Counted from the first letter of the stretch, positions 3,282 to 33,197 are shown. The stretch is 64,000 nucleotides of DNA from Saccharofermentanales bacterium (GCA_050945495.1 JBMNTA010000005.1:19290-83289); one strand, 5' to 3'. The notes: generated by a model not told the origin, from the letters alone. Made by a program: numbers and translations.

Positions 3282-3372
3282 AAAATTGTTCCTCCCTTTC
3301 TGTGTGAGCATTAGTGTATCTATTGTACCCGCGTTGCCGCGGTGACATCCCTTTACGTATATTCTACACGAT

Positions 3373-6478: not shown

Positions 6479-7441
6479 TCACTTCGAAGACGCCATGTCT
6501 TGGGGCACGGCGTTGTCCAACAGCATGGTCTGTGCGCGGTAGAGACCATACATAAAGTCGCCGCCGGACGTCGCACCGATGGCGAGGGCACGTTCGCCGA
6601 CACGCGCCAATTTCTTGACGTCGCCCGTGGCGACGGCGTGCACAAGTTGAATGTACGCATCGCTCGCCTTGCCTTCCGCCGCATGCCTGAGCATGTGGTA
6701 ACTGACGAGCGTCGTCGCGCCCTTGGCGTAGGCCGCGATGGAACGCAGGAAGCGATCGATCGTATCGTGGCGGGTGCCCGTGCGCACGTACATGTCGTAC
6801 AAGCTGAGCATCACGCCCGCCAAAAAATCATCGCAAGACGGCGTGAGCCCCGGGCCGAACCCGATGAGGCGACGTGAGCACTCCAAGGCCTTCACGTAGT
6901 CGTCTTCGCCCAGCGCGGTCATGAACGCTTCCAGATCGCCGCCGATGAAAGAACAATACATGTTCGGCGCGCGTCCCGAGGACGTCGCCGAATCGTCGGA
7001 ACACGCAATCAACGGGGCGACCCCGCCGTTTTCCGGCTTGATCGCGCGGAGACGTTCACGGATCCATGCGAGCGACGCCCGACGCTGTGCGGCGGTCGTC
7101 GGCGGATGATCGCGCAGCGCGGGATCCCAGACGCGCGCATTGAACAAATCAATGGTCACACCGGTTCGGCGAATGGTCAGCGCCATGTCGCCGCCGTAAT
7201 CGACGACATCGTCCACATGAATGTAGGACGCCGGTTTCGGCTTTTCCTCGATCACGAGCCCCATGGGCATGATGTCGCGATCCGACGAGGCGATCGTGAT
7301 GAACGTCTCGTCTTCGGCGATCAAATTGACCGATGTGCGAAACACGGAGTGCACGTCAAAGCTCATCGCGCCGCGCGTCAAAAGCGTCCGACGCAAATCG
7401 GAGGCAATGATGCACGCATGTCCCCGAGGATCCGCGTTCAT
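6479..7441 (-). CDS. DUF2877 protein (YlbF/AllH-like)
   Basis: HSVF, LIGFGPGLTPSCDDFLAG, TTLVS, IGATSGGD motifs. Confidence 0.85.
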   Translation of the reverse strand: MNADPRGHACIIASDLRRTLLTRGAMSFDVHSVFRTSVNLIAEDETFITIASSDRDIMPMGLVIEEKPKPASYIHVDDVVDYGGDMALTIRRTGVTIDLFNARVWDPALRDHPPTTAAQRRASLAWIRERLRAIKPENGGVAPLIACSDDSATSSGRAPNMYCSFIGGDLEAFMTALGEDDYVKALECSRRLIGFGPGLTPSCDDFLAGVMLSLYDMYVRTGTRHDTIDRFLRSIAAYAKGATTLVSYHMLRHAAEGKASDAYIQLVHAVATGDVKKLARVGERALAIGATSGGDFMYGLYRAQTMLLDNAVPQDMASSK

Positions 7442-9123
7442 TGGATCAGTTCCTTAATCTTCAAGGCGAGTTGCAAATTAAACGCCGTTTCGGGATCGCG
7501 CAGATCGATGCCGTACATGTCGCGGATGCGATTGATCCGATAGATGACGGTATTGTAGTGCGTAAACATGATCTCCGAAACGCGCTTTAAGTTGCCGCCG
7601 GCTTCAAAATAGACGCGCACGGTATCGAGCAAGTCGCCGCGCTGCGTACTGTCGTGGGCTTCCAAATCGGCGAGCACTTCGTTCGCGTAGGCCAAGGCGT
7701 CGTCACGCAACAGCGGGTGTCCGAGCACGCGCAAAAGGCCGAGATCGTCGTAATGCAAGACCGATTGTTCGGTGTCGCCGCGACTCTGCAGAATGCGCAC
7801 GGCCTGCTCCGCCTGCTGCAAACTCGCCTGCAGTTGGCGATGCGACTCGACGCACGATCCGACGCCGATGTGCGGCACCGGCAGCGTCTCCGCCTGCTGC
7901 GTGTTGCGCAACAAAATGTTGATGAATCGCTGGCACATGGCACCGCGCTCTTCCGCCGTGGAATTTTTCTCATATTGCAAGAGGAAGATCGCGCGATCGC
8001 TCTTGCGCGTCGACAAGAAATAACCTCCGTATTCCTGGCGGAGGCGATTGGTCAAATTCAACAACCCGGTATTGAGGTTCTTGATCATGCGCGCGTTGTT
8101 CGGCGTCATCTGCAGGCGGCTGCCCTTGTCTTCCACGTCGAGCACCACGATCTGACTCGGTTTTTCCGGATGGTAGAGGTAATAATCGGCATTCTCGATG
8201 GCGCGGTCTTGCTCCGCGGCATCGTCGCTCAGCAATTGCTCCAAAAACGTCGTCTGATGGACGTTTTCGCGTTCGACGAGCGTGATGCGATTTAAAATGT
8301 CGAGGGCGATCAGGGACGAGGCCGATTCGATCACAAACAAATCCTGCGAACGGATCGATTCCTTGGTATCCCATATATAGATGCTGCCGTAGTGCGTGTT
8401 GTCAAAGAAAATCGGAATCGTGAAGCGGTGAATGCCGTGTTCGCCGACGCGCGCTTCGCGACGACGATCGCCCAGAAACATGTGGGTGGTCTGCGGCTCC
8501 ATCTTCGCGATCTCGCGATAGTCGTCGGCAATCAACGCCTCCGCGTCGGGGTCGGGACAATAGAGGTACACGTCACGGAAAATATCGTCGCGGATCACCA
8601 CGGGCGCGTCGAGCGCCAGGTAGATCTGCTCGGCGACGGCCTGCATGCCGCCGTGACGCAACATGATGTCGCGGACCGTGCTGTTGAAGTCGTTGATGCG
8701 GCTCAACAAGCGTGTTTGTTCGCCGATGATGTGGTTGAATATTTCCTTGATGAGGTCGCCGTACTGCACGCTCTGCGGAATGCGAATGATCGGGAAATCA
8801 ATTTCGTCGGCCACGCGCAGCACCCGTTCGGGCACTTCGCTGATGTACCGCTGCGTCTTGATGCCCATGCCGCACACGCGCTTCGCTTTCAGCTTGGGAA
8901 TGAGCGCTTCAAACATCTCAATATCGTCGCTGAACGTGTAGGCGGTGGTCAAAAGAAATTCGCCGGGACGCACCCAGTCGATGATGTCGGGCACTTCCAT
9001 GACGTTGACGGACACGATGCTGTTCGACAGCCCGCGTTCCCCCGCCAGCACCTCGGCATCTTGGAGCAAATCGACATTGAGGATGTCGCGTAGTTGAATT
9101 TTTAACTGATTGCGATCGGTCAC
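7438..9123 (-). CDS. PucR/CdaR family transcriptional regulator
   Basis: N-terminal VLAGERGL..VNVMEVPD..GEFLLTT PucR domain; C-terminal HTH HYNTVIYRINRI. Confidence 0.92.
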   Translation of the reverse strand: MTDRNQLKIQLRDILNVDLLQDAEVLAGERGLSNSIVSVNVMEVPDIIDWVRPGEFLLTTAYTFSDDIEMFEALIPKLKAKRVCGMGIKTQRYISEVPERVLRVADEIDFPIIRIPQSVQYGDLIKEIFNHIIGEQTRLLSRINDFNSTVRDIMLRHGGMQAVAEQIYLALDAPVVIRDDIFRDVYLYCPDPDAEALIADDYREIAKMEPQTTHMFLGDRRREARVGEHGIHRFTIPIFFDNTHYGSIYIWDTKESIRSQDLFVIESASSLIALDILNRITLVERENVHQTTFLEQLLSDDAAEQDRAIENADYYLYHPEKPSQIVVLDVEDKGSRLQMTPNNARMIKNLNTGLLNLTNRLRQEYGGYFLSTRKSDRAIFLLQYEKNSTAEERGAMCQRFINILLRNTQQAETLPVPHIGVGSCVESHRQLQASLQQAEQAVRILQSRGDTEQSVLHYDDLGLLRVLGHPLLRDDALAYANEVLADLEAHDSTQRGDLLDTVRVYFEAGGNLKRVSEIMFTHYNTVIYRINRIRDMYGIDLRDPETAFNLQLALKIKELIQ

Positions 9124-9581: not shown

Positions 9582-10424
9582 GTGCTAAGTAAATTTGATT
9601 ATGTCAAACCGCTTGCACTGGATGAAGCCTTGGATGTATTGGCGCGGGACGACGCGACCTACATTCTGGCGGGCGGCACCGATCTGTTGATCATGCTTCG
9701 CCACAACATCATCGATGCAAAGCACATCCTTGACATCAAAGGGATCCCCGACCTCGACGTGTTTGAGTACGTCGAAGGCAAAGGGCTCACCATTGGCGCC
9801 AACGTCAACGTCAATGAGATCGCGGAATGCGATGTCGTCAAAGAGAAGTATCGCGCACTCCACGACGCGGCCTCGGTTTTGGCCTCGTACCAGTTGAGAA
9901 ACCGCGCGACCTTGGTCGGCAATATCTGCAACGCCTCACCCGGCGCCGATTTGCCCCCGTCGCTCTTGATCTACGACGGCGTCGTCAACATCGCCAGCGC
10001 TCGCGGAGAGCGGAGCCTGCCGATCAACGAGTTCTTCACCGGCGTGAAAAAGAACGCCCTGGAAAAAGACGAACTCGTCGTTTCGGTCTTCCTCCCCGAC
10101 CCCGGTAAGGGAGATAAGAGTTGCTACAAACGTCAGACGCGCTTGAAGGGCCACGACCTTTCGTCGGTCGGCGTTGCCTGCCGCATCGACGGCGAAGGCA
10201 AAGCGGCCATCGGCATCAATGCCGTGGCGATCACGCCCCTGCGTCTCACAGAACTCGAAGAAGGTCTCAACGCCAAAGGTGTCAACGATGCGTCGATCGA
10301 ATGGGCGGCCGAAGAAATCAAACATCATATTCGACCGATCTCCGACGTTCGTGCTTCGAAAGAATACCGCTTGCACATGGCAGGCGTGTTGCTCAAGCGC
10401 TGCTTGAAGCAACTGGTAGGTTAG
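9582..10424 (+). CDS. Xanthine dehydrogenase family FAD-binding subunit
   Basis: LAGGTDL, QLRNRATLVGNICNASPGAD, PISDVRASKEYR; RBS AAGGAGG before GTG. Confidence 0.92.
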   Translation: MLSKFDYVKPLALDEALDVLARDDATYILAGGTDLLIMLRHNIIDAKHILDIKGIPDLDVFEYVEGKGLTIGANVNVNEIAECDVVKEKYRALHDAASVLASYQLRNRATLVGNICNASPGADLPPSLLIYDGVVNIASARGERSLPINEFFTGVKKNALEKDELVVSVFLPDPGKGDKSCYKRQTRLKGHDLSSVGVACRIDGEGKAAIGINAVAITPLRLTELEEGLNAKGVNDASIEWAAEEIKHHIRPISDVRASKEYRLHMAGVLLKRCLKQLVG

Positions 10425-10436
10425 GAGGCCAAGCGT

Positions 10437-10982
10437 ATGACGACCCAAGATAAAAAATTGTGTGCCATGGAACAGGCCCACATCGAATCGGAACAGCGCC
10501 ACGTGGTTCTGTCGTGCACCGTCAACGGCCAACCCGTGGTCGAATCGATCGACCCGACGATGCTGCTGTTGCACTTCTTGCGCGATAAACTCAATTTGAT
10601 GGGCGCGAAAGAAGCGTGCGGCGAAGGCGAATGCGGCGCGTGCACCGTGATTCTCAACGGCAAAGCCGTGACCTCGTGCCTCGTTTTGGCGATTGAAGCC
10701 CAAGGCGGCGAAGTGCTGACCGTCGAAGGCCTGTCGAAATTTGGCCAACTCAGCATTCTCCAACAAGAATTCATCGCCGTCGACGCGTTGCAATGCGGGT
10801 TCTGCACCCCCGGCATGTTGATGTCGGCCCGTGCCCTGCTCGATCGCAACCCCGATCCTACCGATGAAGAGATCAAAGAAGGCATGGCGGGCAACCTCTG
10901 CCGCTGCACCGGCTACTTGCAGATTTTCAACGCAGTGAAACGCGCTGCAAAACGCGAGAGAGAGGAGTTGAACCGTTCATGA
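10437..10982 (+). CDS. Xanthine dehydrogenase family (2Fe-2S) subunit
   Basis: CGEGECGACTV, QCGFCTPG, GNLCRCTGY. Confidence 0.95.
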   Translation: MTTQDKKLCAMEQAHIESEQRHVVLSCTVNGQPVVESIDPTMLLLHFLRDKLNLMGAKEACGEGECGACTVILNGKAVTSCLVLAIEAQGGEVLTVEGLSKFGQLSILQQEFIAVDALQCGFCTPGMLMSARALLDRNPDPTDEEIKEGMAGNLCRCTGYLQIFNAVKRAAKREREELNRS

Positions 10983-13393
10983 CCCATCAAGAACATTTAG
11001 AGCAATTTACCTATCAAAAACATGGCGACTATACGTCGCAGTATAAACATGTCGGACAAGGGTACGAGCGTAAGGACGCGACCGAAAAAGTGACGGGCCA
11101 AGCCCGCTACACATTCGACCTGAAGCTGCCCGGCATGCTGTACGGCAAGACGCTCCACTCCCCGTATGCACGGGCGAAGATCGTCAAAGTCGACGCGAGC
11201 AAGGCCGAGGCGCTGCCCGGCGTTCGCGCCGTTCTGCACGGCCAAAGCTGCTCCGTTTTGGTCGGCCTGTACATGCAAGACAAACGCATCATCGCATGCG
11301 ATGAGACGCGCTACCAAGGCGAAGTCGTCGCGGCCGTCGCCGCCGACACGGAAGCCATCGCGGAAGAAGCCATTTCGCTCATCGACATCGAATACGAAGT
11401 CTTGGAACCCGTGCGCACCATCGACGACGCGTTGAAGGCCGACATCCTCGTTCACGAGGACATCGCGGAACTCAAGCACACCGTGGGCGTCTTCTTCCCG
11501 CAAGCCAACTCGAACATCGCCAGCTTGAACAAGGCTTGCCGCGGCGTTCCCGAGGAAGGGTTCGAAGAAGCCGACATGATCGTCGAAAACGAATTCTCCC
11601 TGCCCGCCGTCGCGCACGTGCCGCTCGAAACGCACGTCGCGATCGTGGAAGCCGATCCTTACACCAATCGCATCAAGATTTGGTCCTCGGCACAGTCGCC
11701 CTTTGCCCTCCGTCAGATGATGGCCGACAGCTTCGGTGTCAACGAGTCGGATATCGAAGTGCACATTCCCTTCGTGGGCGGCGGCTTCGGCGGCAAATCC
11801 GGCATTCACCTGGAACCGCTCGGCACCATCTTGTCGCGTGCCTGCGGCGGCGCTCCGGTCAAACTGAGAATGACGCGTGAGCAAGAGTTCAACTACATGC
11901 CCACCCGTGCCGGGATGCGCGGTCACATCAAGTCCGGCGTCAAGAAGGACGGCGAAATCACCGCCACGTCGATTGTGTACGACTGGGATTCCGGCGCGTA
12001 CGCCGACTACGGCGTCAACGTCGGCAAGACGGCCGTCTACGGCGGCCTCGGCCCGTACGACATTCCGAACGCATCCATCGTCTCCAACACGATTTACACC
12101 AACAAGGTGTTCAGCACCGCGTACCGCGGCTTCGGTCACTTGGAGACCCTGTGGACGATCGAGCGTCAAACCGACATCCTGTCGCAGAAGCTCGGCATCG
12201 ACCCGTACGAGTTCCGCATGAAGAACTTGCTGCGCCCCGGCTCGAGAACGATCTCGGGCGAGCTCGTCACCGAAAGCACCGGAAGCCCGACCGACTGTCT
12301 CACGGCCGTCGTGAAGGAAATCGGCTGGACGGGACGCAAATCCGAAGAAGAACGCAGAGAAGAGTGGAAGACCGGTAAGGTGCGCGGCAAAGGCTTCGCC
12401 ATGATTCAAAAAGCACCGGCCATGCCTCCGAACACCTCGTCTTCCGTCATCATGCAAATGTGCGGCGACGGCCACGTCAAGATGATGATCGGTGCCATCG
12501 ACTACGGTCAGGGCGCCCTCACGGCCATGGCGCAAATCGCGGCGCAAGAGCTCGACATTCCGATTGAAATGGTCGAAACGATTCGCCAGACGAACACGGA
12601 AACGAACCCCTACGACTGGAACACGGTCGCCTCGAAATTCACCTGGATGGGCGGCAACGCCACCATTCGGGCGGCGCGCAACATGGTCGCGCAGATGAAA
12701 AACATCGCGGGACAAGTTCTGCACGTCGCGCCCGAATTTTTGGCGCACAAGGACGGCTACATTTACAGCCCGCACCGCCCCGAACTCCGCATTGCTTACA
12801 AAGACATGGCGCTCGGTTACATGTACCCCGACGGCAAAGGCATCGGCGGTCCGTTGATCTCGCACGGCATTTGCATGGCCGACGGTTTGACGAACCTCGA
12901 CTCCGAAACGGGTCAAGGCCTGCCGGCCGCGGCATGGACCTTTGGCGCGCACGCCGTTGACATCGAAGTCGACGTCGAATCGGGCAGCATTCACATCCTG
13001 AAGGTCGCGTCGGCCTTTGACTTGGGTCAAGTCATCAACGAACGCTTGGTCTACGGCCAAGTCATCGGCGGCGTCATGCAGGGCATCGGCTCGGCGATCC
13101 TCGAGGGCTACAAGTTCAGCGACGACAACGTCCTCCTGAACCCCTCGTTCACCGACAACAAGATCCCGACCATGAAAGACATGCCGGATGAAATCGTTCC
13201 GATTTACATCGAGAACCCGCAGTACAACGGTCCGTTCGGCGCCCGCGGTGTCGCGGAGCACACGATGATTGCCGTGCCTTCGGCCATCGGCAACGCGCTC
13301 TACGACGCGCTCGGCATCAACTACTACCACTTGCCCTTGACGCCCGAAAACGTGGCGCTCGGCATTCTGAGCGGTAAGAAGGACTATAAGTAA
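10979..13393 (+). CDS. Xanthine dehydrogenase family molybdopterin-binding subunit (substrate unknown)
   Basis: KVTG, GGGFGGK, AYRGFG, DYGQG, GARGVAE motifs. Confidence 0.93.
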   Translation: MTHQEHLEQFTYQKHGDYTSQYKHVGQGYERKDATEKVTGQARYTFDLKLPGMLYGKTLHSPYARAKIVKVDASKAEALPGVRAVLHGQSCSVLVGLYMQDKRIIACDETRYQGEVVAAVAADTEAIAEEAISLIDIEYEVLEPVRTIDDALKADILVHEDIAELKHTVGVFFPQANSNIASLNKACRGVPEEGFEEADMIVENEFSLPAVAHVPLETHVAIVEADPYTNRIKIWSSAQSPFALRQMMADSFGVNESDIEVHIPFVGGGFGGKSGIHLEPLGTILSRACGGAPVKLRMTREQEFNYMPTRAGMRGHIKSGVKKDGEITATSIVYDWDSGAYADYGVNVGKTAVYGGLGPYDIPNASIVSNTIYTNKVFSTAYRGFGHLETLWTIERQTDILSQKLGIDPYEFRMKNLLRPGSRTISGELVTESTGSPTDCLTAVVKEIGWTGRKSEEERREEWKTGKVRGKGFAMIQKAPAMPPNTSSSVIMQMCGDGHVKMMIGAIDYGQGALTAMAQIAAQELDIPIEMVETIRQTNTETNPYDWNTVASKFTWMGGNATIRAARNMVAQMKNIAGQVLHVAPEFLAHKDGYIYSPHRPELRIAYKDMALGYMYPDGKGIGGPLISHGICMADGLTNLDSETGQGLPAAAWTFGAHAVDIEVDVESGSIHILKVASAFDLGQVINERLVYGQVIGGVMQGIGSAILEGYKFSDDNVLLNPSFTDNKIPTMKDMPDEIVPIYIENPQYNGPFGARGVAEHTMIAVPSAIGNALYDALGINYYHLPLTPENVALGILSGKKDYK

Positions 13394-13476: not shown

Positions 13477-13498
13477 ATGCGAAAATATTCTGAGATCG

Positions 13499-14032
13499 TC
13501 AGGACGGCATCGTCGCCCGAGGTTGCGTCACCCGAACCACGCGGCGACCGACGGCCCATGCCAACAGCGCTTTCAAGGCATCCCCGGGCAAAAAGATCAC
13601 CATGCCCGTCATCAACAGCTCGCGAAAGCTCAGGACCTTGCCCATGTACACGCGAAGGATCCACGCCATGTAGGGCAGCCCGATGACGTAGAGGGCAAGC
13701 GACGCGAGGACGATGACCGCCCCTTCAAGCCAAGCGCGTCCGCGAACGCGCGGCATGACGAGCGCCATCAAAGGCGCGACGACGACAAACGCGATGACGA
13801 AGCCGAAGGCCGGCGACAGGACGGCGGCGCCGCCGACGATCAACTTGAGCGCCAGATGCAGCAGCATCGCAAAGAAGGCCTCCCACGGACGAAGCACCAG
13901 TCCCGCCATGAGGACGCCGAACGTCTGCAAGGTCACGGGCACCGGCCCGACGGGAATGCGAAACAAGCCGAGCACGAAGGTGAGCCCGCCTAGGAGCGCA
14001 GCCCACGTCATGGAAGCGACGGAACGTCTCAT
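13499..14032 (-). CDS. bioY: Biotin transporter BioY
   Basis: PVPVTLQTFGV, FLPGDALK; ATGA overlap with birA stop. Confidence 0.88.
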   Translation of the reverse strand: MRRSVASMTWAALLGGLTFVLGLFRIPVGPVPVTLQTFGVLMAGLVLRPWEAFFAMLLHLALKLIVGGAAVLSPAFGFVIAFVVVAPLMALVMPRVRGRAWLEGAVIVLASLALYVIGLPYMAWILRVYMGKVLSFRELLMTGMVIFLPGDALKALLAWAVGRRVVRVTQPRATMPS

Positions 14033-15000
14033 GGCCGATCCTCCCAGTCCGCGATGCGCACTTCGCCCGACGTCACCTCGACCGGGACACCGCCCCGCCG
14101 ATAGCACAGGGCACCGTCGTCGGAGATGGATTCCGGGATGACGGTCTCGCCCGAGTCGAGCGTCACGCGGCGGCCCAAAACAAAGCACCGTTCGCGATAG
14201 GCGTCGAGGTAATCGCGCGACGGCAGGCGGTCGAAGATGTCGCCCAAGGCGTTGACAATGTCGGCCGCCAAGCGATTCCGATCGATCGTGACGTCGGGAC
14301 CGTAGAGCGCTCCGGCGATGTCACGGAGCGCGTCGGGGAAGCCGCCTTTTGGGGCGTTCACGTTCAGCCCGATGCCGATCACGACGGCATCGATGTCTCG
14401 GGTCTCCAAGGTCGTCAACGCTTCGGTCAGAATGCCGCCGACTTTGCGTCGCCCCACATACAGATCGTTCACCCACTTGATCCCGACGTCGGGCGCGTTC
14501 GGCGAGCTGCGTTCCAAGGCGCTGCAACCGGCGACGGCCGCCATGGTCGTGACGAGCGTCGGCGGGACGTCGTGGTCCCATCGGACGCCGAGGGACATGT
14601 ACAGGCCCGTGCCGTGCGGCGAAAAGAAGGTACGGCCGCGTCGTCCCCGTCCCGCCGTCTGCGTTTCCGCGACGATGAGGCAGGGCCGATCGTGTGACGT
14701 CCACCGCGCTTTCATGACGTCGTTGGTCGAACGAACCTCGTCCAGGACGATGACCTCCGTGGTGCGCCAACGCTCGGCGAGCGCGCTTTCGATGCCGGCG
14801 ACCGAGAGGTCGGGCGAGGCGGCGGTGAGCCGATACCCTTCGTTCGGGATGCCATCCACCGCAAAGCCGTCACGTCGGAGACGTTCGACCGCTTTGCCGA
14901 CGGCGGCGCGACTGACGCCCGCCCGATCGGCCATGATTTGCCCCGATACGGGCCGGGGCGCCTCGCGTAAACACTTCAAAACAAACGATGCGGTATCCAT
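14029..15000 (-). CDS. birA: Bifunctional biotin ligase/repressor BirA
   Basis: N-terminal HTH (SGQ..GVSRAAV), QTAGRGRRGR, IKWVND, KVGGIL, GIGLN. Confidence 0.93.
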   Translation of the reverse strand: MDTASFVLKCLREAPRPVSGQIMADRAGVSRAAVGKAVERLRRDGFAVDGIPNEGYRLTAASPDLSVAGIESALAERWRTTEVIVLDEVRSTNDVMKARWTSHDRPCLIVAETQTAGRGRRGRTFFSPHGTGLYMSLGVRWDHDVPPTLVTTMAAVAGCSALERSSPNAPDVGIKWVNDLYVGRRKVGGILTEALTTLETRDIDAVVIGIGLNVNAPKGGFPDALRDIAGALYGPDVTIDRNRLAADIVNALGDIFDRLPSRDYLDAYRERCFVLGRRVTLDSGETVIPESISDDGALCYRRGGVPVEVTSGEVRIADWEDRP

Positions 15001-15027
15001 GCGACCATTGTCTTCGGAAACACGTCG

Positions 15028-15060
15028 ATTGTCAACCGTAATTACAGACAGGTTGACGTT
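15028..15060. promoter_or_regulatory. Putative BirA operator (bioO)
   Basis: GTCAACC-N13-GGTTGAC palindrome 30 bp upstream of birA, resembling the known TGTtAAC-N14/16-GTTaACA BirA consensus. Confidence 0.75.
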
Positions 15061-15090
15061 CAACGTTCCCCGCCGCTTTGGTGTATTCTT

Positions 15091-16020
15091 ATGAGTGTCA
15101 TCATGCGGAAGGAGCCTCAAAGATCCATGACCTTTCATCAGCTCAATGTCTTTCGTTGCGTCGTCGAAATGGGGGGTGTCAGCCGCGCCTCGGACCACCT
15201 CGACATTCCGCAGCCGGCCGCGACGCGTGCCATTCGCGCCTTGGAAGAAGAGTTCGGGCTCGAACTCTTCGATCGCAGCGGCAATCGCATGGTCGTCAAC
15301 GAGAGCGGTCAACTGCTCTATGACTTCACGACGCGTCTGTTTCGCATGAAGGCCAAACTCGAGACGGCGATGGAGGCCCGCCGTCAACACGACGACACGG
15401 TCATCTCGATCGTGGTCGAAGCGGCGTCGTCGCGCTTACCGCAAATCTGCACGGCCTTCAGCGAACGCCACCCCGATGCGACGTTTCGCCTGTTGCATCA
15501 GCCGGCGGCCGTGCGCTGGGAGGCCAAGGACTATCATTTGCGCCTCCATTCGACGCGCGAACGCCCCACGGGCGACCACCTCTACGTCTTGGCCGACGAA
15601 GCCATCAAGCTGGCCGTTCAGAGCGACGGGCCGTTCGGCGATCGGACGAGCGTGAAGCTTGCCGAAGTGAAAGACATGGGCTTTGTGAGTTTGTTTCGCA
15701 CGCACGGGTTGCGCCAAATCACCAACGCGTACTGCGCCATTGCGGGCTTTCAGCCGAAAATCATTTTCGAAACCGACAACACGACGACGGTCTTTCGCTA
15801 CGTCAACGCAGGGCACGGCATCGCGTTTATCCCCGATCTGACGTGGCCCAAACAGCGCGAAGGCGATGAGCAAGTGCATCTCATCGCCATCACGGAGCCG
15901 GTATGCCGGCGTTACATCAATTTAAGCACGCTCGAACCGAGTGATCTCACCCGGTACGAGCGGCTCTTTGTCGATTTTTTAATCGAATCGTTTCAAACGA
16001 TCCAAGCACACAACGCTTAA
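15091..16020 (+). CDS. LysR family transcriptional regulator
   Basis: SRASDHLDIPQPAATRAIRALEEEFGLELFDR HTH; true start may be the Met at about 15127. Confidence 0.9.
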   Translation: MSVIMRKEPQRSMTFHQLNVFRCVVEMGGVSRASDHLDIPQPAATRAIRALEEEFGLELFDRSGNRMVVNESGQLLYDFTTRLFRMKAKLETAMEARRQHDDTVISIVVEAASSRLPQICTAFSERHPDATFRLLHQPAAVRWEAKDYHLRLHSTRERPTGDHLYVLADEAIKLAVQSDGPFGDRTSVKLAEVKDMGFVSLFRTHGLRQITNAYCAIAGFQPKIIFETDNTTTVFRYVNAGHGIAFIPDLTWPKQREGDEQVHLIAITEPVCRRYINLSTLEPSDLTRYERLFVDFLIESFQTIQAHNA

Positions 16021-17498
16021 TCGAGCGCCGGTGCGGACACGGGCGGCCGACGATCGTGCGTCGCCTGTTCGAAGGCGTACGCGATCTCGATCAGGACGGG
16101 CTCGCTGAACGGACGTCCGATGATCTCCAGCCCCACGGGCACGCCGATCGGCGCCTCGGGACTCGGGGCAAATCCGGCCGGCACGGCGATGGACGGGAAG
16201 CCCGTCGACGAGCACAGGACGCCGTTGCGTCCGTTTTGGCTGCCGCCGATCTCGCACACCAACTGTTGCTGGTGCGGATAGACAAACGCGTCCAGGTCGT
16301 GGTCGGCCATGAGCTTCAAGATCTTCGTCTTGAACGCTTCTTGACGCATGCGCTTTTCGTTGTAGCGCGGCGTGCCGATGTCGAGCTTCTTCGCCGTCAA
16401 CATGTTCTCTTCGATGCCCGGATGGTACAGGCCGCTCTCGAGGATGTCGTCCATCGAGTGCACCTTCGCTTCCGGACCGAGCGTTTCGAGGTAACCGTTC
16501 AAGTGCGTCTTGAAGTCATCCAAGTGGACGCTCACTTCCGAAATCATCCACGCGGAATCGAGCTCCTCGTCGATGTCGATCAGGGTGGCGCCGTTCGCTT
16601 CGAAGGCCTTCAACGCTTCGTCCATGACATCGTTCACCGGTTGGTGAATCGCTTTTTTGCCGAAGAACGAGCGCAAGACGCCGATGCGTTTGCCCTCGAG
16701 CCCGTCGCGGCGCAAGTGCTCGGTGTAGTGCGTCGTGTCCTGCCCGTACGCCCACGCGGTCTCATCGTCGTCGGGGTCGTACCCCGCGATGACCTCCAGC
16801 GTGCGAACGCAATCTTCCACGGTGCGGCAAATGGGGCCGGCCGTATCTTGCGTCAAGCTGTACGGCACGATGCCGGCGCGTGAGACGAGGCCCACGGTCG
16901 GACGAATGCCCGCGAGCGAGCACGCCGATGCGGGACTCCGCACCGAGTTGATCGTGTCGGTGCCGATGCCGATGATGCCGATGTTGCAGGCAATCGCGGC
17001 GCCGGTGCCGCCCGACGAACCGCCGGGGGTCCGGGTCGGATCGTACGGGTTCACCGTCTGGCCGAGCATCGAGCTGATCGTCTCGCCCCAGATCGCGAAC
17101 TCGTGCAGGTTCGTCTTCGCCAGGATCAGGGCCCCGGCCTCACGCAAGCGCTTCGTGATGAACGCGTCGTGATCCGGCACGTAGCCTTCGAGCGATTTCG
17201 AACCGGCCGTCGTCGGCATATCGTACGTGTTGACGTTGTCTTTCAACATCACGGGAATCCCGTGCAAGGGTCCCGAAAGGCTCCCCGAGCGCTTCAAAAG
17301 ATCGTCCAAGCGGTCCGCCTCTTCGAGCGCTTTGGGGTTGACCAAGATGATCGCGTTGATCGCGGGCCCTTGGTCTTCGAATGCGTCGATGCGCTTCAGG
17401 TACGCCTCGACGAGCTCGCGGCACGTCAGTTGTCCGTCGAGCATCGCGCGATGCACCTTGGCGATCGTCGTTTCCATCAATTCAAAAGATTGTGACAT
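16017..17498 (-). CDS. Amidase-signature family amidase (possible malonamidase)
   Basis: GPLHGIPVMLKDN, GGSSGG, GTDTINSVRSPAS carry the Lys/cis-Ser/Ser triad; last gene of mdcA operon. Confidence 0.9.
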   Translation of the reverse strand: MSQSFELMETTIAKVHRAMLDGQLTCRELVEAYLKRIDAFEDQGPAINAIILVNPKALEEADRLDDLLKRSGSLSGPLHGIPVMLKDNVNTYDMPTTAGSKSLEGYVPDHDAFITKRLREAGALILAKTNLHEFAIWGETISSMLGQTVNPYDPTRTPGGSSGGTGAAIACNIGIIGIGTDTINSVRSPASACSLAGIRPTVGLVSRAGIVPYSLTQDTAGPICRTVEDCVRTLEVIAGYDPDDDETAWAYGQDTTHYTEHLRRDGLEGKRIGVLRSFFGKKAIHQPVNDVMDEALKAFEANGATLIDIDEELDSAWMISEVSVHLDDFKTHLNGYLETLGPEAKVHSMDDILESGLYHPGIEENMLTAKKLDIGTPRYNEKRMRQEAFKTKILKLMADHDLDAFVYPHQQQLVCEIGGSQNGRNGVLCSSTGFPSIAVPAGFAPSPEAPIGVPVGLEIIGRPFSEPVLIEIAYAFEQATHDRRPPVSAPALD

Positions 17499-17515
17499 TT
17501 ACCTGCTCCCTCCGT

Positions 17516-18679
17516 TTAGCCAAAGAAGCTCAAAAGCAAGCCCGCGGCGACCGCCGATCCGATGACGCCGGCCACGTTCGGGCCCATGGCGTGCATCAAC
17601 AGGAAGTTCGACGGGTTGTACTTCTGCCCTTCTTTTTGGACGACGCGCGCGGCCATCGGGACGGCCGACACACCGGCGGCGCCGATCAACGGATTGATCT
17701 TGCCCTTCGTGAAGAAGCACATGAGCTTGCCGAACAAGACGCCGAAGGCCGTGCCGATCGCAAAGGCCAAGAGGCCCAAGACGATGATCTTGATCGTCCC
17801 GGTCGTCAAGAATGTCTCCGCGGTCGCGGTCGCGCCGACGGTGACGCCCAGGAAAATCGAGACGATGTACATCAAGGAATCTTGGATGGCTTTCACCATC
17901 AACGGGACACGTCCCGATTCTTTCAGCAAGTTACCGAGCATCAGCATGCCGATCAACGCGCCGGCCGACGGCAGCAGCAACACGGTGAAGAGCGTCACGA
18001 CGATCGGGAACAAGACTTTTTCGTGCTTGCTCACGGGGCGCAACTGCTCCATCTTGATCTCGCGTTCCTTCTTGGTCGTCAGGGCTTTCATGATGGGCGG
18101 TTGAATGATCGGTACCAGCGCCATGTATGAGTAGGCCGCAATGGCGATCGGTCCCAACAGATAGGGCGCCAGCCGACTCGTCAAAAACAAGGCGGTCGGT
18201 CCGTCGGCGCCGCCGATGATGCCGATCGAGGCCGCTTCGGGGCCCGTGAAGCCCAAGGCGATCGCACCGATGAAGGTGATAAAAATGCCGATCTGTGCCG
18301 CGGCCCCCAAAAGCAGGCTGCGCGGGTTCGCGATCAGCGGACCGAAGTCCGTCGACGCCCCGATGCACAGGAAGATCAGCGGCGGATAAATCCCCATGGC
18401 GGTGCCTTGGTAGAGGTAGTACAGAAGGCCGCCCGGCTGCGTGCCGAGGGGACCGTCCATCAACCCCGCCAACGGCAAGTTGACGAGCAACATACCGAAC
18501 GCGATGGGAATCAATAAGTACGGTTCGTAATCCTTCTTGACGCCCAAGTAGATGAACAGACAGGCGATCACGATCATGATCAGCCGGCCCGGCACCATCA
18601 CGCCGAACAGCTCCGTATCGAGCGAAAACAGTTCGGCGAACCCGGACGTCTTGAAGAAATCAATTAAGACTTCCCACAT
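17516..18679 (-). CDS. Na+-translocating decarboxylase beta subunit (MmdB/OadB)
   Basis: IGIIGGADGPT, AAYSYMALVP, GVSAVPMAARV, MHAMGPNVAGVIGS. Confidence 0.95.
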   Translation of the reverse strand: MWEVLIDFFKTSGFAELFSLDTELFGVMVPGRLIMIVIACLFIYLGVKKDYEPYLLIPIAFGMLLVNLPLAGLMDGPLGTQPGGLLYYLYQGTAMGIYPPLIFLCIGASTDFGPLIANPRSLLLGAAAQIGIFITFIGAIALGFTGPEAASIGIIGGADGPTALFLTSRLAPYLLGPIAIAAYSYMALVPIIQPPIMKALTTKKEREIKMEQLRPVSKHEKVLFPIVVTLFTVLLLPSAGALIGMLMLGNLLKESGRVPLMVKAIQDSLMYIVSIFLGVTVGATATAETFLTTGTIKIIVLGLLAFAIGTAFGVLFGKLMCFFTKGKINPLIGAAGVSAVPMAARVVQKEGQKYNPSNFLLMHAMGPNVAGVIGSAVAAGLLLSFFG

Positions 18680-18691
18680 GTGACGGCTCCT

Positions 18692-19078
18692 CTACTTGAA
18701 CGAGACGAGCGTCGTTCCGGCGCTGACGACATCCCCTTTGTTGACATGGACTTTGTCGACGACGCCGTCGGTGGGCGCCACGATCTCGTTTTCCATCTTC
18801 ATGGCTTCGATGACAAGGAGCAAATCGCCGGCTTTGACCGTCTGCCCGGGCTCCGCCGCGATCGAGAGGATCGTGCCCTGCAAGGGCGCGGTGACGCCGC
18901 CGCCCACGGGCGCGGGTGCGGGTGCGGGGGCCGGAGCGGCCTTGGGGGCCGGGGCCGCCTTCGGGGCGGGCGCGGCTTTCGGTGCGGGACGCGCCGAGGG
19001 CGCGTCGGCCTTCACTTCTTCGACTTCAACAAAATGTTCAACGCCGTCAATGACGATGCGAAATGATTTCATGGACAT
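18692..19078 (-). CDS. Biotin carboxyl carrier subunit (MmdC-like)
   Basis: EAMKM biotinylation motif; Pro/Ala linker with APKAAP repeats. Confidence 0.95.
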
Positions 19079-19096
19079 AACAAAATTTCCTTTCTC

Positions 19097-19453
19097 TTAT
19101 GAACGCTGGAGCGAGTCTTCGATGCTCGACGCTTCCCAGCCGGTTAAAGGCGCGCCGCGGCGCTCCACTTTTCGAATGATCAGTTGCGTATCCTCGTCCG
19201 CGTACGCCGCCAGGGCCGCCGCGATGATGGCCACGGTTTCGGCACTCACGCCGTCCTCGACCGCGGGCGCCGGCGGGGGCGCCTGGTCGTTCGCGACCTC
19301 GTCCTTTTCGCGCTTGTTCGCTTTGCGCTTCGCGGCGACGGCCACCAGGTCGATCAAATACGAGATGACCAAGAGGACCAAAAAGACGATGACGATCGAA
19401 AACAACGACAGCAAAAACGCTTGCCAGGCCGTAATGTTGGCAAAATCAAACAT
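19097..19453 (-). CDS. OadG/MmdD family decarboxylase anchor subunit
   Basis: N-terminal TM IVIVFLVLLVI, VAIIAAALAAY, C-terminal Trp motif. Confidence 0.85.
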   Translation of the reverse strand: MFDFANITAWQAFLLSLFSIVIVFLVLLVISYLIDLVAVAAKRKANKREKDEVANDQAPPPAPAVEDGVSAETVAIIAAALAAYADEDTQLIIRKVERRGAPLTGWEASSIEDSLQRS

Positions 19454-19462
19454 GGCAACCCC

Positions 19463-21010
19463 CTAGAGCGGCATGTTACCGTGTTTCTTCGCCGGAAGCC
19501 CCGCACGTTTCGTGCGCAGCGTCTCAAACGAAGAGATCAGGCGCTGACGCGTCTCCTCGGGCACGATGACGTCGTCCAGGTAGCCGCGCGATGCCGCATA
19601 GTACGGGTTCATCATGGCCTCCTGGTAATCGGCGATGCGCTCTTGGCGCTTGGCCGCGGGATCTTCGGCGTTGCGAATCTCACGCGAGAAGATGATGTTC
19701 GCCGCACCCTCGGCCCCCATGACCGCGATCTCCGCCTCGGGCCAACCGAGGACGATGTCGCCGCCCAAATGCTTGGAGCACATCCCAATGTACGCGCCGC
19801 CGTAGGCTTTGCGCACAATCAAGGTCACCTTCGGCACGGTCGCTTCGCTGTAAGCGAAGAGCATTTTCGCGCCGTGGCGGATGATGCCGCCGTACTCCTG
19901 TTGCGTGCCGGGCAGGAAGCCGGGCACGTCGACCAGCGTCAGCAACGGAATGTTGAACGCGTCGCACGTGCGAATGAAGCGCGAGGCCTTGTCGGACGCA
20001 TTGATGTCGAGGCAACCGGCCATGGCGCGCGGTTGGTTCGCAATGACGCCGATGCTCTGGCCGTTCAGGCGCATGAAGCCCGTGAGGATGTTGGGCGCGT
20101 ACAGCTCCTGAACCTCGAAGAAGTCGCCGCCGTCGGCGATGGCGTAAATCAAATCGCGCATGTCGTACGGCTTGCTCGGGTCTTCGGGAATCAGTTCGTT
20201 CAAGTCCTCCAACAGCGCGTTGGGGTCTTCCGCCGGCTCATAGACTTCGGGCTTTTCGCGGTTGTTTTGCGGCAAATAGCTCAAGAGCTTGCGGATTTGT
20301 TCCAGACACGCCGCTTCATCGGGCGCGCGGAAATGCGCGACGCCGCTCGTCTGGTTGTGCGTGTAGGAACCGCCCAATGCCTGGGCCGAAACTTCTTCGC
20401 CCGTGACCGCACGGATGACGTTTGGTCCGGTGATGAACATTTCGCTGGTGTCGTCGACCATGAAGATGAAGTCCATCAGGGCCGGCGAATAGACGGCGCC
20501 GCCGGCGCACGGTCCCATGATCACGGAGATCTGGGGGATGACGCCCGACGCCATCGTGTTGTTGTAGAAAATACGGCCGTAACCCGCGAGGGAGTCGACG
20601 CCCTCTTGGATGCGGGCGCCGCCCGAGTCGTTGATGCAGATCATCGGGCAACCGAGTTTCAGGGCCAAATTCTGTGTCGCGACGATTTTGTCCGCGTGCA
20701 TCTCGCCGAGCGAGCCGCCGACCACGGTGAAGTCCTGCGCCGAAACGCACACCGTGCGACCGTCGATCGTGCCGTAACCGGTCACGACGCCGTCGCCCGG
20801 CGCCTCTTTCGTGTCCATCCCGAACTGGGTGGAACGATGTTTGACGAACCCACCCGTCTCGACAAAGCTTTTGTCATCGAGCAATGCCTCGATGCGTTCG
20901 CGCGCCGTCATTTTGCCGCGCTCATGCTGGCGTTCGATGCGCCGCTCGCCGCCGCCCAACCGCAATTGGGCTTTGCGTTCGAGCAATTGTTCATGAATAT
21001 CCTTACGCAA
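19463..21010 (-). CDS. Acyl-CoA carboxyltransferase (methylmalonyl-CoA decarboxylase alpha, MmdA-like)
   Basis: GKMTARERI, DSGGARIQEG, GPCAGGAVYSPA, DVPGFLPG, KKHGNMPL. Confidence 0.93.
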   Translation of the reverse strand: MRKDIHEQLLERKAQLRLGGGERRIERQHERGKMTARERIEALLDDKSFVETGGFVKHRSTQFGMDTKEAPGDGVVTGYGTIDGRTVCVSAQDFTVVGGSLGEMHADKIVATQNLALKLGCPMICINDSGGARIQEGVDSLAGYGRIFYNNTMASGVIPQISVIMGPCAGGAVYSPALMDFIFMVDDTSEMFITGPNVIRAVTGEEVSAQALGGSYTHNQTSGVAHFRAPDEAACLEQIRKLLSYLPQNNREKPEVYEPAEDPNALLEDLNELIPEDPSKPYDMRDLIYAIADGGDFFEVQELYAPNILTGFMRLNGQSIGVIANQPRAMAGCLDINASDKASRFIRTCDAFNIPLLTLVDVPGFLPGTQQEYGGIIRHGAKMLFAYSEATVPKVTLIVRKAYGGAYIGMCSKHLGGDIVLGWPEAEIAVMGAEGAANIIFSREIRNAEDPAAKRQERIADYQEAMMNPYYAASRGYLDDVIVPEETRQRLISSFETLRTKRAGLPAKKHGNMPL

Positions 21011-21030
21011 AGGTCTGTCCTCCTTCTCGA

Positions 21031-22665
21031 TTACTTACGGAAACTTTCGGGAATCTCGTACAAGCCGCCGGAGATCTCGACAAGTTCGTCGAGCGATTGA
21101 ACCGCCAAACGATCGTGCGTGGCCGTCGCGGGATCGATGCCGAGATCTTCGGGCAACGCGACCTTGCCGGCCTTACGCAGCTGTTCGAGTTTCGCCTTGT
21201 TGGTGTATTCGCCGATCGGCGTGTCTTGCGCGACCGCGCCGAGGATTTGTGTCTTCTCTTCGTCGCTTTCGGCCATGTACAGGTACGCGATGCCTTGCTC
21301 CGTCACCACGTGCGTGACGTCTTCGCTGTAGATCATGATCGGCGGCGCGTCCAATCCCGCGTCGCGACCGATCTTGATGGCATCGAGTTCCGGTTTGATG
21401 TTGTAGCCGTAGCGGCCTTGGCTGCGCAGCATTTGAACGACCAGTTTCTTGCCGGGGATCAACGAACGTCCCGTGGTCGAACGCGTGCTGAGGTACGCGG
21501 GCGTCGTGTGACGACGGCCCAAGGTGTTGTGCCCCATGTTCGGCGCACCGCCGAAGCCGGAGAGGCGTCCGCTCGTGACGGTCGACGAGTTGCCGAGGTA
21601 GTCAAGCTGCAGCGTGCCGCCCAAGAACAGGTCGATGCCGTAGAGGCCGGCGAGCTGCGCATAGGCGCGGTTGGAGCGGAGCGACCCATCCGATCCTATC
21701 GTGAAGATGTCCGGACGTGCTTCCGTGTAACGCTGCATGCCGGTTTCGCCGCCGAACGCGTAGATCGAATCGACCCAGCCGTGTTCGATCGCGGGGATCA
21801 TCGTGGGATGCGGGTTCAACACCCAGTGACGACAGATCTTGCCCTTGAGTCCCAGCTCTTCGCCGTACGTGGGCAGCAAGAGCTCAATGGCCGCGGCATT
21901 GTAGCCGATGCCGTGGTTCAAGGTCGTGACGCCGTGCTTCGCGTAAATGCCCTTGATGGTCATCATGCCCATCAAGATATGGTGATCGCGGATCTTCTTC
22001 GGATCGCGCGTAAAGAGCGCTTCCATCGGGTACGGTTCGTCGGCCTTGACGATCAAGTCGATCCAACCGCCGGGGATGTCGACGCGCGGGAGCTCCTCCG
22101 TCGGCACGATCTCGTTCACTTGCGCGATGACGATGCCGTCCTTGAAGGCCGCCGATTCGACGATGATCGGCGTCTCTTCCGTGCTGAAGCCCGTGTAGAG
22201 GTTGCCGTCCGCGTCGGCTTTGTCGGCCGCCACGAGGCACACGTCCGGGATCAAGTCCACAAACAGCCGTGCGTACAGCTCCAAATACGTGTGGATGGAA
22301 CCGATCTTCAATTTGTGTTCTTCGAGCATCTTCGACAGGCGAACGCTCTGCACGCCCGCGAAGGCGAAGTTGATTTCTTCCGCAATGCCCTTTTCAAAAA
22401 TATCCAAATGCGCATCGCGGGAAATCGACGGAATGATCATCGTCAATCCGTTGATCTTTTGAGGATCGACCTCGGCCAGAGCACTCGACAAAAACGTCGC
22501 TTGTTTCTGGTTGTCGCCCTCAAGCACCACCCGATCGTTCGGTTGCAAAATCGCCTCCAACGCCGGCACGATCGACGCGGTCTCGATGACCTTGCCGTCG
22601 ACCCAAGACGCCGCGCGTTCCAAACGTTTCGCTTTTCGATCACGCCTACCTTGCCAATTCATCAT
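21031..22665 (-). CDS. mdcA: Malonate decarboxylase alpha subunit (ACP/CoA transferase)
   Basis: LEGDNQKQA, IHTYLELYARLF, LNPHPT, GFGGAPNMG, DVTHVVTEQGIAYL; start at 22665 behind AAGGAGG. Confidence 0.92.
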   Translation of the reverse strand: MMNWQGRRDRKAKRLERAASWVDGKVIETASIVPALEAILQPNDRVVLEGDNQKQATFLSSALAEVDPQKINGLTMIIPSISRDAHLDIFEKGIAEEINFAFAGVQSVRLSKMLEEHKLKIGSIHTYLELYARLFVDLIPDVCLVAADKADADGNLYTGFSTEETPIIVESAAFKDGIVIAQVNEIVPTEELPRVDIPGGWIDLIVKADEPYPMEALFTRDPKKIRDHHILMGMMTIKGIYAKHGVTTLNHGIGYNAAAIELLLPTYGEELGLKGKICRHWVLNPHPTMIPAIEHGWVDSIYAFGGETGMQRYTEARPDIFTIGSDGSLRSNRAYAQLAGLYGIDLFLGGTLQLDYLGNSSTVTSGRLSGFGGAPNMGHNTLGRRHTTPAYLSTRSTTGRSLIPGKKLVVQMLRSQGRYGYNIKPELDAIKIGRDAGLDAPPIMIYSEDVTHVVTEQGIAYLYMAESDEEKTQILGAVAQDTPIGEYTNKAKLEQLRKAGKVALPEDLGIDPATATHDRLAVQSLDELVEISGGLYEIPESFRK

Positions 22666-22770
22666 GTATCCTCCTTGCAATGGTGTGAAAAACACGGCCA
22701 AAGGCCGCTGTTTCAGTGTATCCGACTACTTTAAAGCTATCACTCAAGCGCCTAAAACGTCAATTATTAA

Positions 22771-22802
22771 ATGGGCTATAGCCCATAACAAAAATGTTAT
22801 GG
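22771..22802. promoter_or_regulatory. Overlapping inverted repeats upstream of mdcA (candidate operator)
   Basis: ATGGGCTATAGCCCAT (22771-22786) and CCATAACA-AAAA-TGTTATGG (22783-22802). Confidence 0.55.
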
Positions 22803-22850
22803 CAAAGCGGCCTCGCAAGCGCCGCGTCGAGTGTATATACTGGGGATATC

Positions 22851-23240: not shown

Positions 23241-23246
23241 AGGGCG

Positions 23247-24260: not shown

Positions 24261-24275
24261 GGCCTCCTTCTCTCG

Positions 24276-33193: not shown

Positions 33194-33197
33194 GTCC

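Follow-up and report, generated by a model that had tools for sequence, protein, structure and literature searches.

Malonate decarboxylases are textbook enzymes that need a special acyl carrier protein (ACP) with a phosphoribosyl-dephospho-CoA arm. How, then, could malonate be decarboxylated by an operon that encodes no such protein? The question is raised by six genes in a 64,000-nucleotide stretch of the genome of a Saccharofermentanales bacterium (GCA_050945495.1 JBMNTA010000005.1:19290-83289; hereafter the window), where the gene for the malonate-activating transferase MdcA is joined to genes for a Na+ pump of the methylmalonyl-CoA decarboxylase (Mmd) type and to an amidase gene. An earlier note on the window had proposed that MdcA feeds free CoA esters to the pump and that the amidase extends the system to malonamate. 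We consider it probable that the operon represents a third malonate decarboxylase architecture, which would use free CoA thioesters rather than an ACP and would end an anaerobic route from uracil by way of barbiturate. The substrates and reactions assigned below to the operon and its surroundings are those we infer from the observed gene content and order, conservation, residue patterns and absences; every computational test that we ran agrees with the model of the earlier note.

MdcA is encoded next to an acyl-CoA-type sodium pump

The operon is a minus-strand run of six genes (22665-16017), separated by gaps of 20, 9, 18, 12 and 17 nucleotides; the genome comprises 1,515,828 bases on 78 contigs and is 93.59% complete. 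Its first gene, mdcA (21031..22665), encodes a malonate-activating transferase, read here as an acetyl-CoA:malonate CoA-transferase, with matches of 826.9 bits to PF16957, 792.4 bits to TIGR01110 (cut-off 789.15) and 689 bits to the Pseudomonas MdcA of PDB 5vit. The longest open reading frame (ORF) spans 21031-22701 and begins with TTG, but the ATG at 22665, with GGAGGA ahead of it, suits the start of the homology better and is the likely start. The second gene (19463..21010) encodes a 515-residue single-chain acyl-CoA:biotin carboxyltransferase of the MmdA/PccB type (PF01039, 674 bits; TIGR01117 for mmdA, 856.3 bits, below the cut-off of 998.8). It is followed by genes for an OadG/MmdD-type membrane anchor (19097..19453; PF04277, OAD_gamma, 58.1 bits; TIGR01195, 39.8 bits against a cut-off of 36.05), a biotin carboxyl carrier protein with an Ala/Pro linker (18692..19078; PF00364, Biotin_lipoyl, 69.4 bits; NF047903 for MmdC, 121.3 bits, below the cut-off of 200) and an OadB-type carboxybiotin decarboxylase, the beta subunit of the Na+ pump (17516..18679; PF03977, OAD_beta, 527.3 bits; 478.8 bits to TIGR01109, a generic model for Na+-pump beta subunits with a cut-off of 190.6). 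The last gene (16017..17498) encodes an amidase-signature amidase, a candidate malonamate amidohydrolase (PF01425, 326.8 bits over positions 1-443 of 445). All six genes thus lie on the strand and at the positions given by the earlier note, in the order mdcA-carboxyltransferase-anchor-carrier-beta-amidase and with clear family matches, and the end coordinate that it gave, 22665, coincides with the likely ATG of mdcA.

MdcA retains its active site and has lost its ACP-docking surface

The functional positions of the window MdcA were read from its alignment to PDB 5vit, in Pseudomonas numbering, with the malonate-pocket, oxyanion-hole, diphosphate-site and MdcA-MdcC interface residues taken as named in the Pseudomonas MdcA structure paper (PMC5534430). 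The comparison set was drawn from 105 loci, of which 3 were dropped (matched segment shorter than 500 residues or a stop inside) and 9 further ones were set aside because no carboxyltransferase match was present in the locus. The comparison was between 66 classical rows and 28 hybrid rows with 23 distinct sequences, a row being hybrid if an MmdA-type carboxyltransferase gene comes after mdcA. The window MdcA keeps all 10 malonate-binding and catalytic residues. Nine positions (N59, Y134, R228, N258, N292, F312, R341, Q345 and G381) are invariant throughout both groups, and the tenth, I261, is replaced by V or L at most.

The docking surface is a different matter. Four residues at the MdcA-MdcC interface, F424, E466, I490 and R521, were mutated by the authors of the structure paper (PMC5534430). 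Among the 65 ACP-linked classical rows, position 424 is F or Y in every row, position 466 is E in 63, position 490 is V or I in 64 and position 521 is R in 59. In the hybrid rows, by contrast, F424 is deleted in 28 of 28, E466 is replaced by Q in 28 of 28, position 490 is G, D, E or A in all 28, and position 521 is P in 24, Q in 2 and T in 2. A fifth position, R500, which contacts MdcE, is variable even in classical enzymes and is uninformative. A search with an ACP profile made from 41 MdcC ORFs ran parallel to the residues: an MdcC-type ACP was found in 65 of the 66 classical loci, whereas none was found in the 28 hybrid loci (including window positions 9001-27000) or in 9 loci extended to 20 kb. 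The ACP-less character claimed for the operon is thus upheld by the loci as well as by the residues lost from MdcA, whose active site is kept. Taken together with the acyl-CoA type of its carboxyltransferase partner, the kept active site and the lost ACP surface lead us to infer that MdcA acts in CoA transfer between acetyl-CoA and malonate.

The strongest argument for free CoA esters comes from the only classical locus without an ACP. It lies in a genome of the same order and of another family (G304; a single contig, 97% complete), which has no PF06857 ACP and no CitG anywhere. In the locus concerned (G304:C1:58700-78699, L126), the ORFs at 1441-2319, 2393-4048 and 4064-5713 encode a LysR-type regulator, MdcA and a 549-residue MdcD-MdcE fusion with Carboxyl_trans and MdcE domains. 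The G304 MdcA carries L, Q, N and P at docking positions F424, E466, I490 and R521, respectively. Thus, an MdcA that has to do without an ACP shows much the same docking changes as the window MdcA, which argues that the latter would use free CoA esters. In the MdcA tree, the hybrid rows are set apart by one split (SH-aLRT 100), and the G304 sequence is basal on the classical side, adjoining this split. By its gene content, the G304 system would itself be a soluble malonate decarboxylase that uses neither ACP nor biotin, one more variant not yet described. A gene for an SBF-family transporter lies upstream of the G304 malonate genes.

The carboxyltransferase and the pump fit an acyl-CoA substrate

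The window carboxyltransferase matches solved acyl-CoA carboxyltransferases (PccB, 12S transcarboxylase and the acetyl-CoA carboxylase beta subunit) with 694 to 642 bits, the highest score being that to PDB 1vrg, and reaches only 36.8-79.4 bits against MdcD and MdcE models (MdcD, 77.9 bits with a cut-off of 278; MdcE, 36.8 bits with a cut-off of 237). On these scores it is a canonical single-chain acyl-CoA enzyme, in line with the free CoA esters postulated for the operon beforehand. In the alignment it has Ile at the position of D422 of Streptomyces PccB, where a D422I exchange reportedly allows PccB to use acetyl-CoA as a substrate. We give this position little weight as a marker of specificity; 3n6r, deposited as a propionyl-CoA carboxylase beta subunit, has Val there.

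The translated biotin carrier has an EAMKM biotinylation motif behind its Ala/Pro linker. The beta subunit matches PDB 6iva with 386 bits and was compared at 10 residues that are given as essential or critical for function in the structure paper on the oxaloacetate decarboxylase (OAD) pump of Salmonella and Klebsiella (PMC7274780). The alignment shows 8 of the 10 retained (E40, D203, Y229, N373, G377, S382, N412 and S419), among them all three residues of the Na+ site (D203, S382 and N412). The genes for the carboxyltransferase, anchor, carrier and beta subunit, as well as mdcA, are each single copy in their own genome, where tblastn gave no second match to the carrier. There is no AccC or other biotin carboxylase in the genome (best score 18.7 bits), and the operon apparently holds the only biotin enzyme of the cell.

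Two further genes on the minus strand, beside the operon, would serve this one enzyme only. A BirA biotin-protein ligase is encoded at 14029..15390 (PF03099, HTH_11; TIGR00121, 131.5 bits against a cut-off of 83.1), with its real start probably near 15000 since the family match begins at residue 131, and a BioY biotin transporter is encoded at 13499..14188 (PF02632, 77.6 bits).

In the reaction cycle that these components suggest, MdcA would convert acetyl-CoA and malonate to malonyl-CoA and acetate, and the carboxyltransferase would move the free carboxyl group of malonyl-CoA to the biotin of the carrier, regenerating acetyl-CoA. The beta subunit, held by the OadG-type anchor, would then decarboxylate carboxybiotin and export Na+. 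Overall, malonate + H+ would be converted to acetate + CO2, a Na+ gradient being formed and no ATP spent; BirA would biotinylate the carrier with biotin supplied through BioY. A V-type ATPase, the genes of which are present, could use the gradient. Its subunit genes lie on contig 7 (L133, G000:C7, 4186-12501) beside genes for arginine deiminase, ornithine carbamoyltransferase, carbamate kinase and ornithine fermentation; judging from these genes, the organism is an amino acid fermenter with at least one other pathway that yields carbamoyl phosphate.

The operon is the last module of a conserved catabolic island

The operon forms the last module of a conserved 25-kb island, in which the whole block from the molybdenum (Mo) enzyme to a nucleobase permease is syntenic in the genus. 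The permease, of the NCS2 family (PF00860), is represented in the window by its 3' part (1..630, plus strand), the gene beginning upstream; at full length it scores 335.1 bits against the uracil permease PRK10720, 259.8 against RutG and 200.2 against the xanthine permease PbuX. It is followed on the minus strand by an AEC-family transporter (1426..2373; PF03547, 83.2 bits), with a 48% identical copy at the same site in a relative (G057), and by a cyclase-family metal hydrolase (2484..3380; PF04199, 117 bits), a candidate barbiturate ring opener with 71-83% identical copies behind AllG in G047, G057 and G069. Next on this strand come homologues of AllG (3373-4635; PF06545), FdrA/AllF (4850-6403; Ligase_CoA/CoA_binding; NF004760, 496.4 bits against a cut-off of 433) and AllH (6479-7441; PF11392), and a PucR-family regulator with PucR, GGDEF_2 and HTH_30 domains that is syntenic in relatives (7438..9123). 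The plus-strand genes at 9582..13393 encode, by Pfam, the three subunits of a Mo hydroxylase of the xanthine dehydrogenase (XDH) family (FAD subunit, 9582-10424; 2Fe-2S subunit, 10437-10982; Mo subunit, 10979-13393), a candidate uracil-to-barbiturate hydroxylase. It falls under every NCBIfam equivalog cut-off, its best solved relatives being 4-hydroxybenzoyl-CoA reductase and quinoline oxidoreductase.

For E. coli, AllFGH is described as an oxamic transcarbamylase, which converts oxalurate to oxamate and carbamoyl phosphate (PMC11326118). By analogy, the island may encode the following sequence. Uracil would be imported and hydroxylated to barbiturate by the Mo enzyme, and the cyclase-family hydrolase would open the barbiturate ring to ureidomalonate (malonurate). 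Phosphorolysis of malonurate by the AllFGH-like carbamoyltransferase would give carbamoyl phosphate, from which carbamate kinase could gain one ATP, and malonamate, which the amidase would split into malonate and ammonia for the operon described above. We put forward tentatively, and with less confidence than the decarboxylase architecture itself, that the island encodes a complete undescribed fermentation of uracil, perhaps also of thymine, in which energy would be conserved twice, as ATP through carbamate kinase and through an ACP-free, Na+-pumping decarboxylation.

A second arrangement of these genes is found in a genome of another genus (G069, 42.5% GC). There, the carboxyltransferase gene and mdcA, the latter directly adjacent to the Mo enzyme genes, are divergent from a run in the order XDH(FAD, FeS, Mo)-PucR-AllH-FdrA-AllG-cyclase-carbamate kinase-amidase-MocA-like. 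A nearby carbamate kinase had been named beforehand as a test of the pathway idea, and was then found in this genome (424.9 bits to TIGR00746, which has a cut-off of 358.25). Of the 65 family genomes, 24 have both MdcA and AllG, 36 have neither, 1 has MdcA alone and 4 have AllG alone; since the genomes are kin and the genes are linked in the genus, these counts are a description and not statistics. The only OadB-type pump of G069 (L138, G069:C1:159000-176000, 7786-11079, minus strand) is encoded 150 kb from mdcA, in an operon for an OadA-like (5S-type) subunit, anchor, carrier and beta subunit. The G069 carboxyltransferase would have to share this distant carrier and pump, or to form a transcarboxylase with the 5S-type subunit.

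The window also contains two inosine-uridine nucleoside hydrolase genes, a PnrA-type nucleoside ABC importer (binding protein, two permeases and ATPase) and a MobA-like gene (31233-39247). They lie 6 to 14 kb from the island, past a block of ribosomal protein genes, and could supply free bases.

The amidase and the fate of the ureido group

The earlier note had linked the amidase to malonate through malonamate, and its gene context speaks for this link: the amidase gene stays in the operon across the genus, and in G069 it has moved behind the AllFGH-like and carbamate kinase genes, near mdcA and the carboxyltransferase gene. The protein contains GGSSGG and LKDN motifs; we take the Lys of the latter to be catalytic, and the assignment of the motif residues to a Ser-cisSer-Lys triad is likewise assumed. 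Its closest solved relative is a peptide amidase (296 bits).

Of the alternatives to the proposed pathway, the one that survives best concerns this enzyme. The classical oxidative pyrimidine pathway ends with a hydrolytic ureidomalonase, itself a member of the amidase-signature family, and the sequence of the window amidase does not fix its substrate; the enzyme might therefore hydrolyse ureidomalonate with release of urea, or have a different amide as its substrate, and malonamate would then not be an intermediate. We regard this as unlikely. The G069 amidase, 66% identical to that of the window, is encoded directly behind the AllH-FdrA-AllG-cyclase-carbamate kinase genes, a set that is sensible only when carbamoyl phosphate is the form in which the ureido group departs; malonamate would then remain and call for an amidase. 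In addition, of the 25 family genomes that have MdcA, 24 also have AllG.

The ACP of a neighbouring lyase

No mdcC (ACP), mdcB, mdcG or mdcH gene is present within the operon, and the 93.59% complete genome has no match to MdcG and none to Acyl_transf_1, the family of MdcH and FabD; the absence of these partners that had been asserted is therefore borne out. A genome-wide check for an mdcC-type ACP, which the earlier note had called for, returned a single PF06857 match, at 60591-60827 in the window, 38 kb from the operon. The only CitG match of the genome (54582-55373) is fused to CitX. In the region 54531-63652, the CitXG fusion, CitF, CitE and the ACP adjoin methylaspartate ammonia-lyase (60905-62146) and glutamate mutase E (62201-63652), and no member of the citrate-lyase ligase family was detected among the ORFs around the CitXG/CitF/CitE cluster. 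The region looks like a locus for glutamate fermentation by way of methylaspartate that includes a citramalate-type lyase, and the ACP, called 'CitD' in the earlier note, is probably the carrier of this citramalate lyase, or of a citrate lyase, and not a malonate component.

A second alternative, somewhat less probable than the first, is that this ACP, matured by CitXG, doubles as a carrier for the operon: MdcA would then make malonyl-S-ACP and, by analogy with MadC/MadD of Malonomonas, the carboxyltransferase would accept the carboxyl group from it. The ACPs of citrate lyase and malonate decarboxylase carry the same kind of prosthetic group, an ACP and a CitXG protein are encoded in one and the same window, each of the five relatives tested has exactly one ACP, and of the 25 genomes with MdcA in the family 24 have an ACP, the only one without being a 74% complete genome (G048). 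However, the ACP is as common where MdcA is missing. It occurs in 51 of the 65 family genomes, with or without MdcA, and in all genomes of two genera that lack MdcA (8 of 8 in g9, 5 of 5 in g7), so that its presence is explained by the lyase. It is grouped with CitE, CitF, methylaspartate ammonia-lyase and glutamate mutase E. The docking residues are lost from the window MdcA, the ACP-free G304 being similar at all four positions, and the carboxyltransferase is of the single-chain acyl-CoA type rather than a split MdcD/E or MadC/D. Phyletic presence and absence was tried as a test of independence from the ACP and does not discriminate, the ACP being common regardless of MdcA.

Methylmalonate and reverse operation

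A third alternative is that the operon encodes an ordinary methylmalonyl-CoA decarboxylase pump, for which MdcA activates methylmalonate or another dicarboxylate. The gene order is indeed that of mmdA-D-C-B, the best named NCBIfam matches of the carboxyltransferase and carrier are mmdA and MmdC, and degradation of thymine through the same island would be expected to yield methylmalonate. However, both of these scores lie below their cut-offs, and the genome has no match to methylmalonyl-CoA mutase (PF01642), which was detected in 8 of 14 control genomes; the succinate-to-propionate route is thus missing. With neither this mutase nor a biotin carboxylase, the operon would be part neither of that route nor of an ATP-dependent carboxylase. 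Furthermore, the malonate-binding residues known from Pseudomonas MdcA are invariant, including F312, described as packing on C2 (PMC5534430), and the carboxyltransferase has the Ile at the PccB D422 position, a weak marker as noted above given the Val of 3n6r. Methylmalonate as the dedicated substrate is therefore improbable, slightly more so than a shared ACP.

The genome also has no real match to a ketoacyl synthase (27.8 bits over 39 residues) and, FabD being missing as well, the organism seems to lack type II fatty acid synthesis. Hence, reverse operation as a Na+-driven acetyl-CoA carboxylase, or the use of MdcA to provide biosynthetic malonyl-CoA in place of the missing acetyl-CoA carboxylase, can be dismissed as highly improbable, for although Na+ decarboxylases can be reversed in vitro and the genome has no AccC, no consumer of malonyl-CoA was found and the operon lies inside an island of catabolic character, which includes an amidase and a PucR regulator.

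Several observations nevertheless weigh against the reading of the operon and island as an ACP-free, malonate-decarboxylating end to uracil fermentation. The synteny inside one genus reflects inheritance, and the only independent evidence is the G069 arrangement, plus G304 for MdcA alone. In the beta subunit, R304 is replaced by L and N311 by D, both of which are essential in the Salmonella pump. The carboxyltransferase, carrier and amidase all score below the curated cut-offs of their closest named NCBIfam models, so that the substrate is not readable from family membership, and no malonamidase is found among the 18 solved chains that match the amidase at E <=1e-30. The genome has no AtzD-type barbiturase, and the proposed ring opening therefore rests on a family never shown to catalyse it. 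Carbamate kinase is encoded outside the island in the window's genome, in an arcABC cluster on contig 7. Finally, the window itself contains an ACP and a CitXG fusion, and the presence and absence counts are compatible with sharing of this ACP.

Distribution and neighbouring genes

MdcA was searched for in 301 genomes of the order. The type found in the window is present in 19 of the 22 other genomes of its genus, which belongs to the Clostridia and is known from digesters, 4 of the 7 of a second genus and 1 of the 12 of a third (G069). Neighbourhoods were compared at 80 genome loci and at the 80 metagenome loci that were kept. An MmdA-type carboxyltransferase gene comes after mdcA at 6 of the former and 10 of the latter, in each set the nearest relatives of the window; the remaining loci are classical Mdc loci, with an MdcA identity of 55-63%. 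The 80 metagenome loci revealed no new arrangement: all 10 hybrids have the synteny of the genus, and one more locus is cut inside mdcA.

Two loci depart from the pattern in other ways. On a metagenome contig (L142, 11685-15433), the carboxyltransferase and biotin carrier genes are followed by the amidase gene, with no tblastn match to the beta subunit or anchor between them. At a locus of a 78%-complete relative (L120, G050:C11:103200-123199), the Mo subunit, beta subunit and LysR regulator each match in several pieces; these may be frameshifts or assembly errors, with decay of the island in one lineage as a possibility.

At least half of the sampled words of the stretch were present in 20 of the 24 listed sequencing runs (12 studies), from digester, bioreactor, sludge, wastewater and landfill habitats, two of which rows may be the window's own source. 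There was no RNA run among these 24, one RNA-Seq label being only guessed.

The gene that converges with the operon (15091..16020, plus strand) encodes a LysR-type regulator with HTH_1 and LysR_substrate domains, of which 54-63% identical copies occupy the same site in relatives. Upstream of mdcA lie orf148, without a family match (22794-23240, plus strand), and, on the minus strand and identified by Pfam, an alpha/beta hydrolase (23247-24260) and a MATE exporter (24276-25676). These three genes are syntenic across the genus (g1) and the metagenome loci, and are missing from the G069 arrangement. A scan of 15800-23300 for promoters and terminators gave counts not above those in shuffled sequence. 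A profile of the malonate carrier MadM was silent in the genome, but also in the control genomes, so that its silence carries no information.

Relation to known systems and significance

The Mad system of Malonomonas rubra (EC 7.2.4.4), as covered in the text of PMC8085960, is alike in its MdcA/MadA-type activation, its biotin carrier and its Na+ export by an OadB-family subunit, features that are here predicted from genes. It differs in having an ACP of its own, MadE, and dedicated enzymes for the prosthetic group, whereas the window locus has no ACP gene, and in a split MadC/MadD that acts on malonyl-S-ACP, whereas the window carboxyltransferase is of the single-chain acyl-CoA type. Moreover, the window beta subunit scores far under the cut-off of the MadB equivalog (TIGR03136, 181.5 bits against 596.9).

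With the MdcACDE enzymes of Pseudomonas, Klebsiella and Acinetobacter, the operon shares an MdcA that is 57-63% identical to classical MdcAs over the best segment and has identical residues in the malonate pocket and oxyanion hole. Unlike them, it comes without MdcC, MdcD/E, MdcB, MdcG and MdcH, and its MdcA has lost F424, E466, I490 and R521; the classical enzymes are soluble, whereas the window system would be membrane-bound, biotin-dependent and energy-conserving. The MmdADECB decarboxylases of Veillonella and Propionigenium (EC 7.2.4.3) have the same subunit types in the order carboxyltransferase-anchor-carrier-beta and the same substrate class, free acyl-CoA. Compared with these, the window adds mdcA before and an amidase gene after the pump genes, its scores for mmdA and MmdC fall short of the cut-offs, and methylmalonyl-CoA mutase is missing from its genome. 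Dehning and Schink (1994) reportedly found, in Sporomusa malonica, CoA transfer from acetyl-CoA to malonate, followed by decarboxylation of malonyl-CoA, which is the sequence proposed here; no genes assigned to that activity came to light in our search. In the full-text literature searched, we found no description of an architecture combining MdcA, an Mmd-type pump and an amidase; the reaction sequence would have the Sporomusa malonica precedent.

As to the rest of the island, it has homologues of AllF, AllG and AllH, and G069 has a carbamate kinase too, as does the allantoin branch of E. coli (PMC11326118). Malonurate is oxalurate plus one CH2. No allantoin-pathway genes stand beside the island's homologues, unlike those of E. 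coli. Relative to the oxidative (barbiturate) pathway of Rhodococcus, an XDH-family hydroxylase and a cyclase-family hydrolase would replace uracil dehydrogenase and AtzD-type barbiturase, and the end product would be decarboxylated for energy. In the full-text literature, with subscription journals and supplements lying outside the search, we came across no report of MdcA linked to an Mmd-type pump, nor of malonate decarboxylation linked to an AllFGH or barbiturate route. The reductive uric acid pathway reported in 2025 is a different pathway (PMC12507026).

If the proposed reading is correct, the operon would constitute a third type of malonate decarboxylase, and the combination of MdcA with an Mmd-type pump on free CoA esters would show that the ACP is dispensable. 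Decarboxylase Na+ pumps would then be modular, G069 even encoding its carboxyltransferase apart from an OadA-type pump operon. The operon would also offer candidate genes for malonate CoA-transferase (EC 2.8.3.3), an activity listed in the text of a 2021 review with the remark 'No function number in KEGG' (PMC8307300). It would further offer gene candidates, if none has yet been assigned, for the free malonyl-CoA route reportedly found in Sporomusa malonica. Pyrimidine bases are rich in nitrogen, and an anaerobic fate by oxidative attack on the ring is absent from the literature searched. Together, operon and island suggest a way for small-genome fermenters of digesters, sludge and landfill to obtain ATP as well as an ion gradient from these bases.

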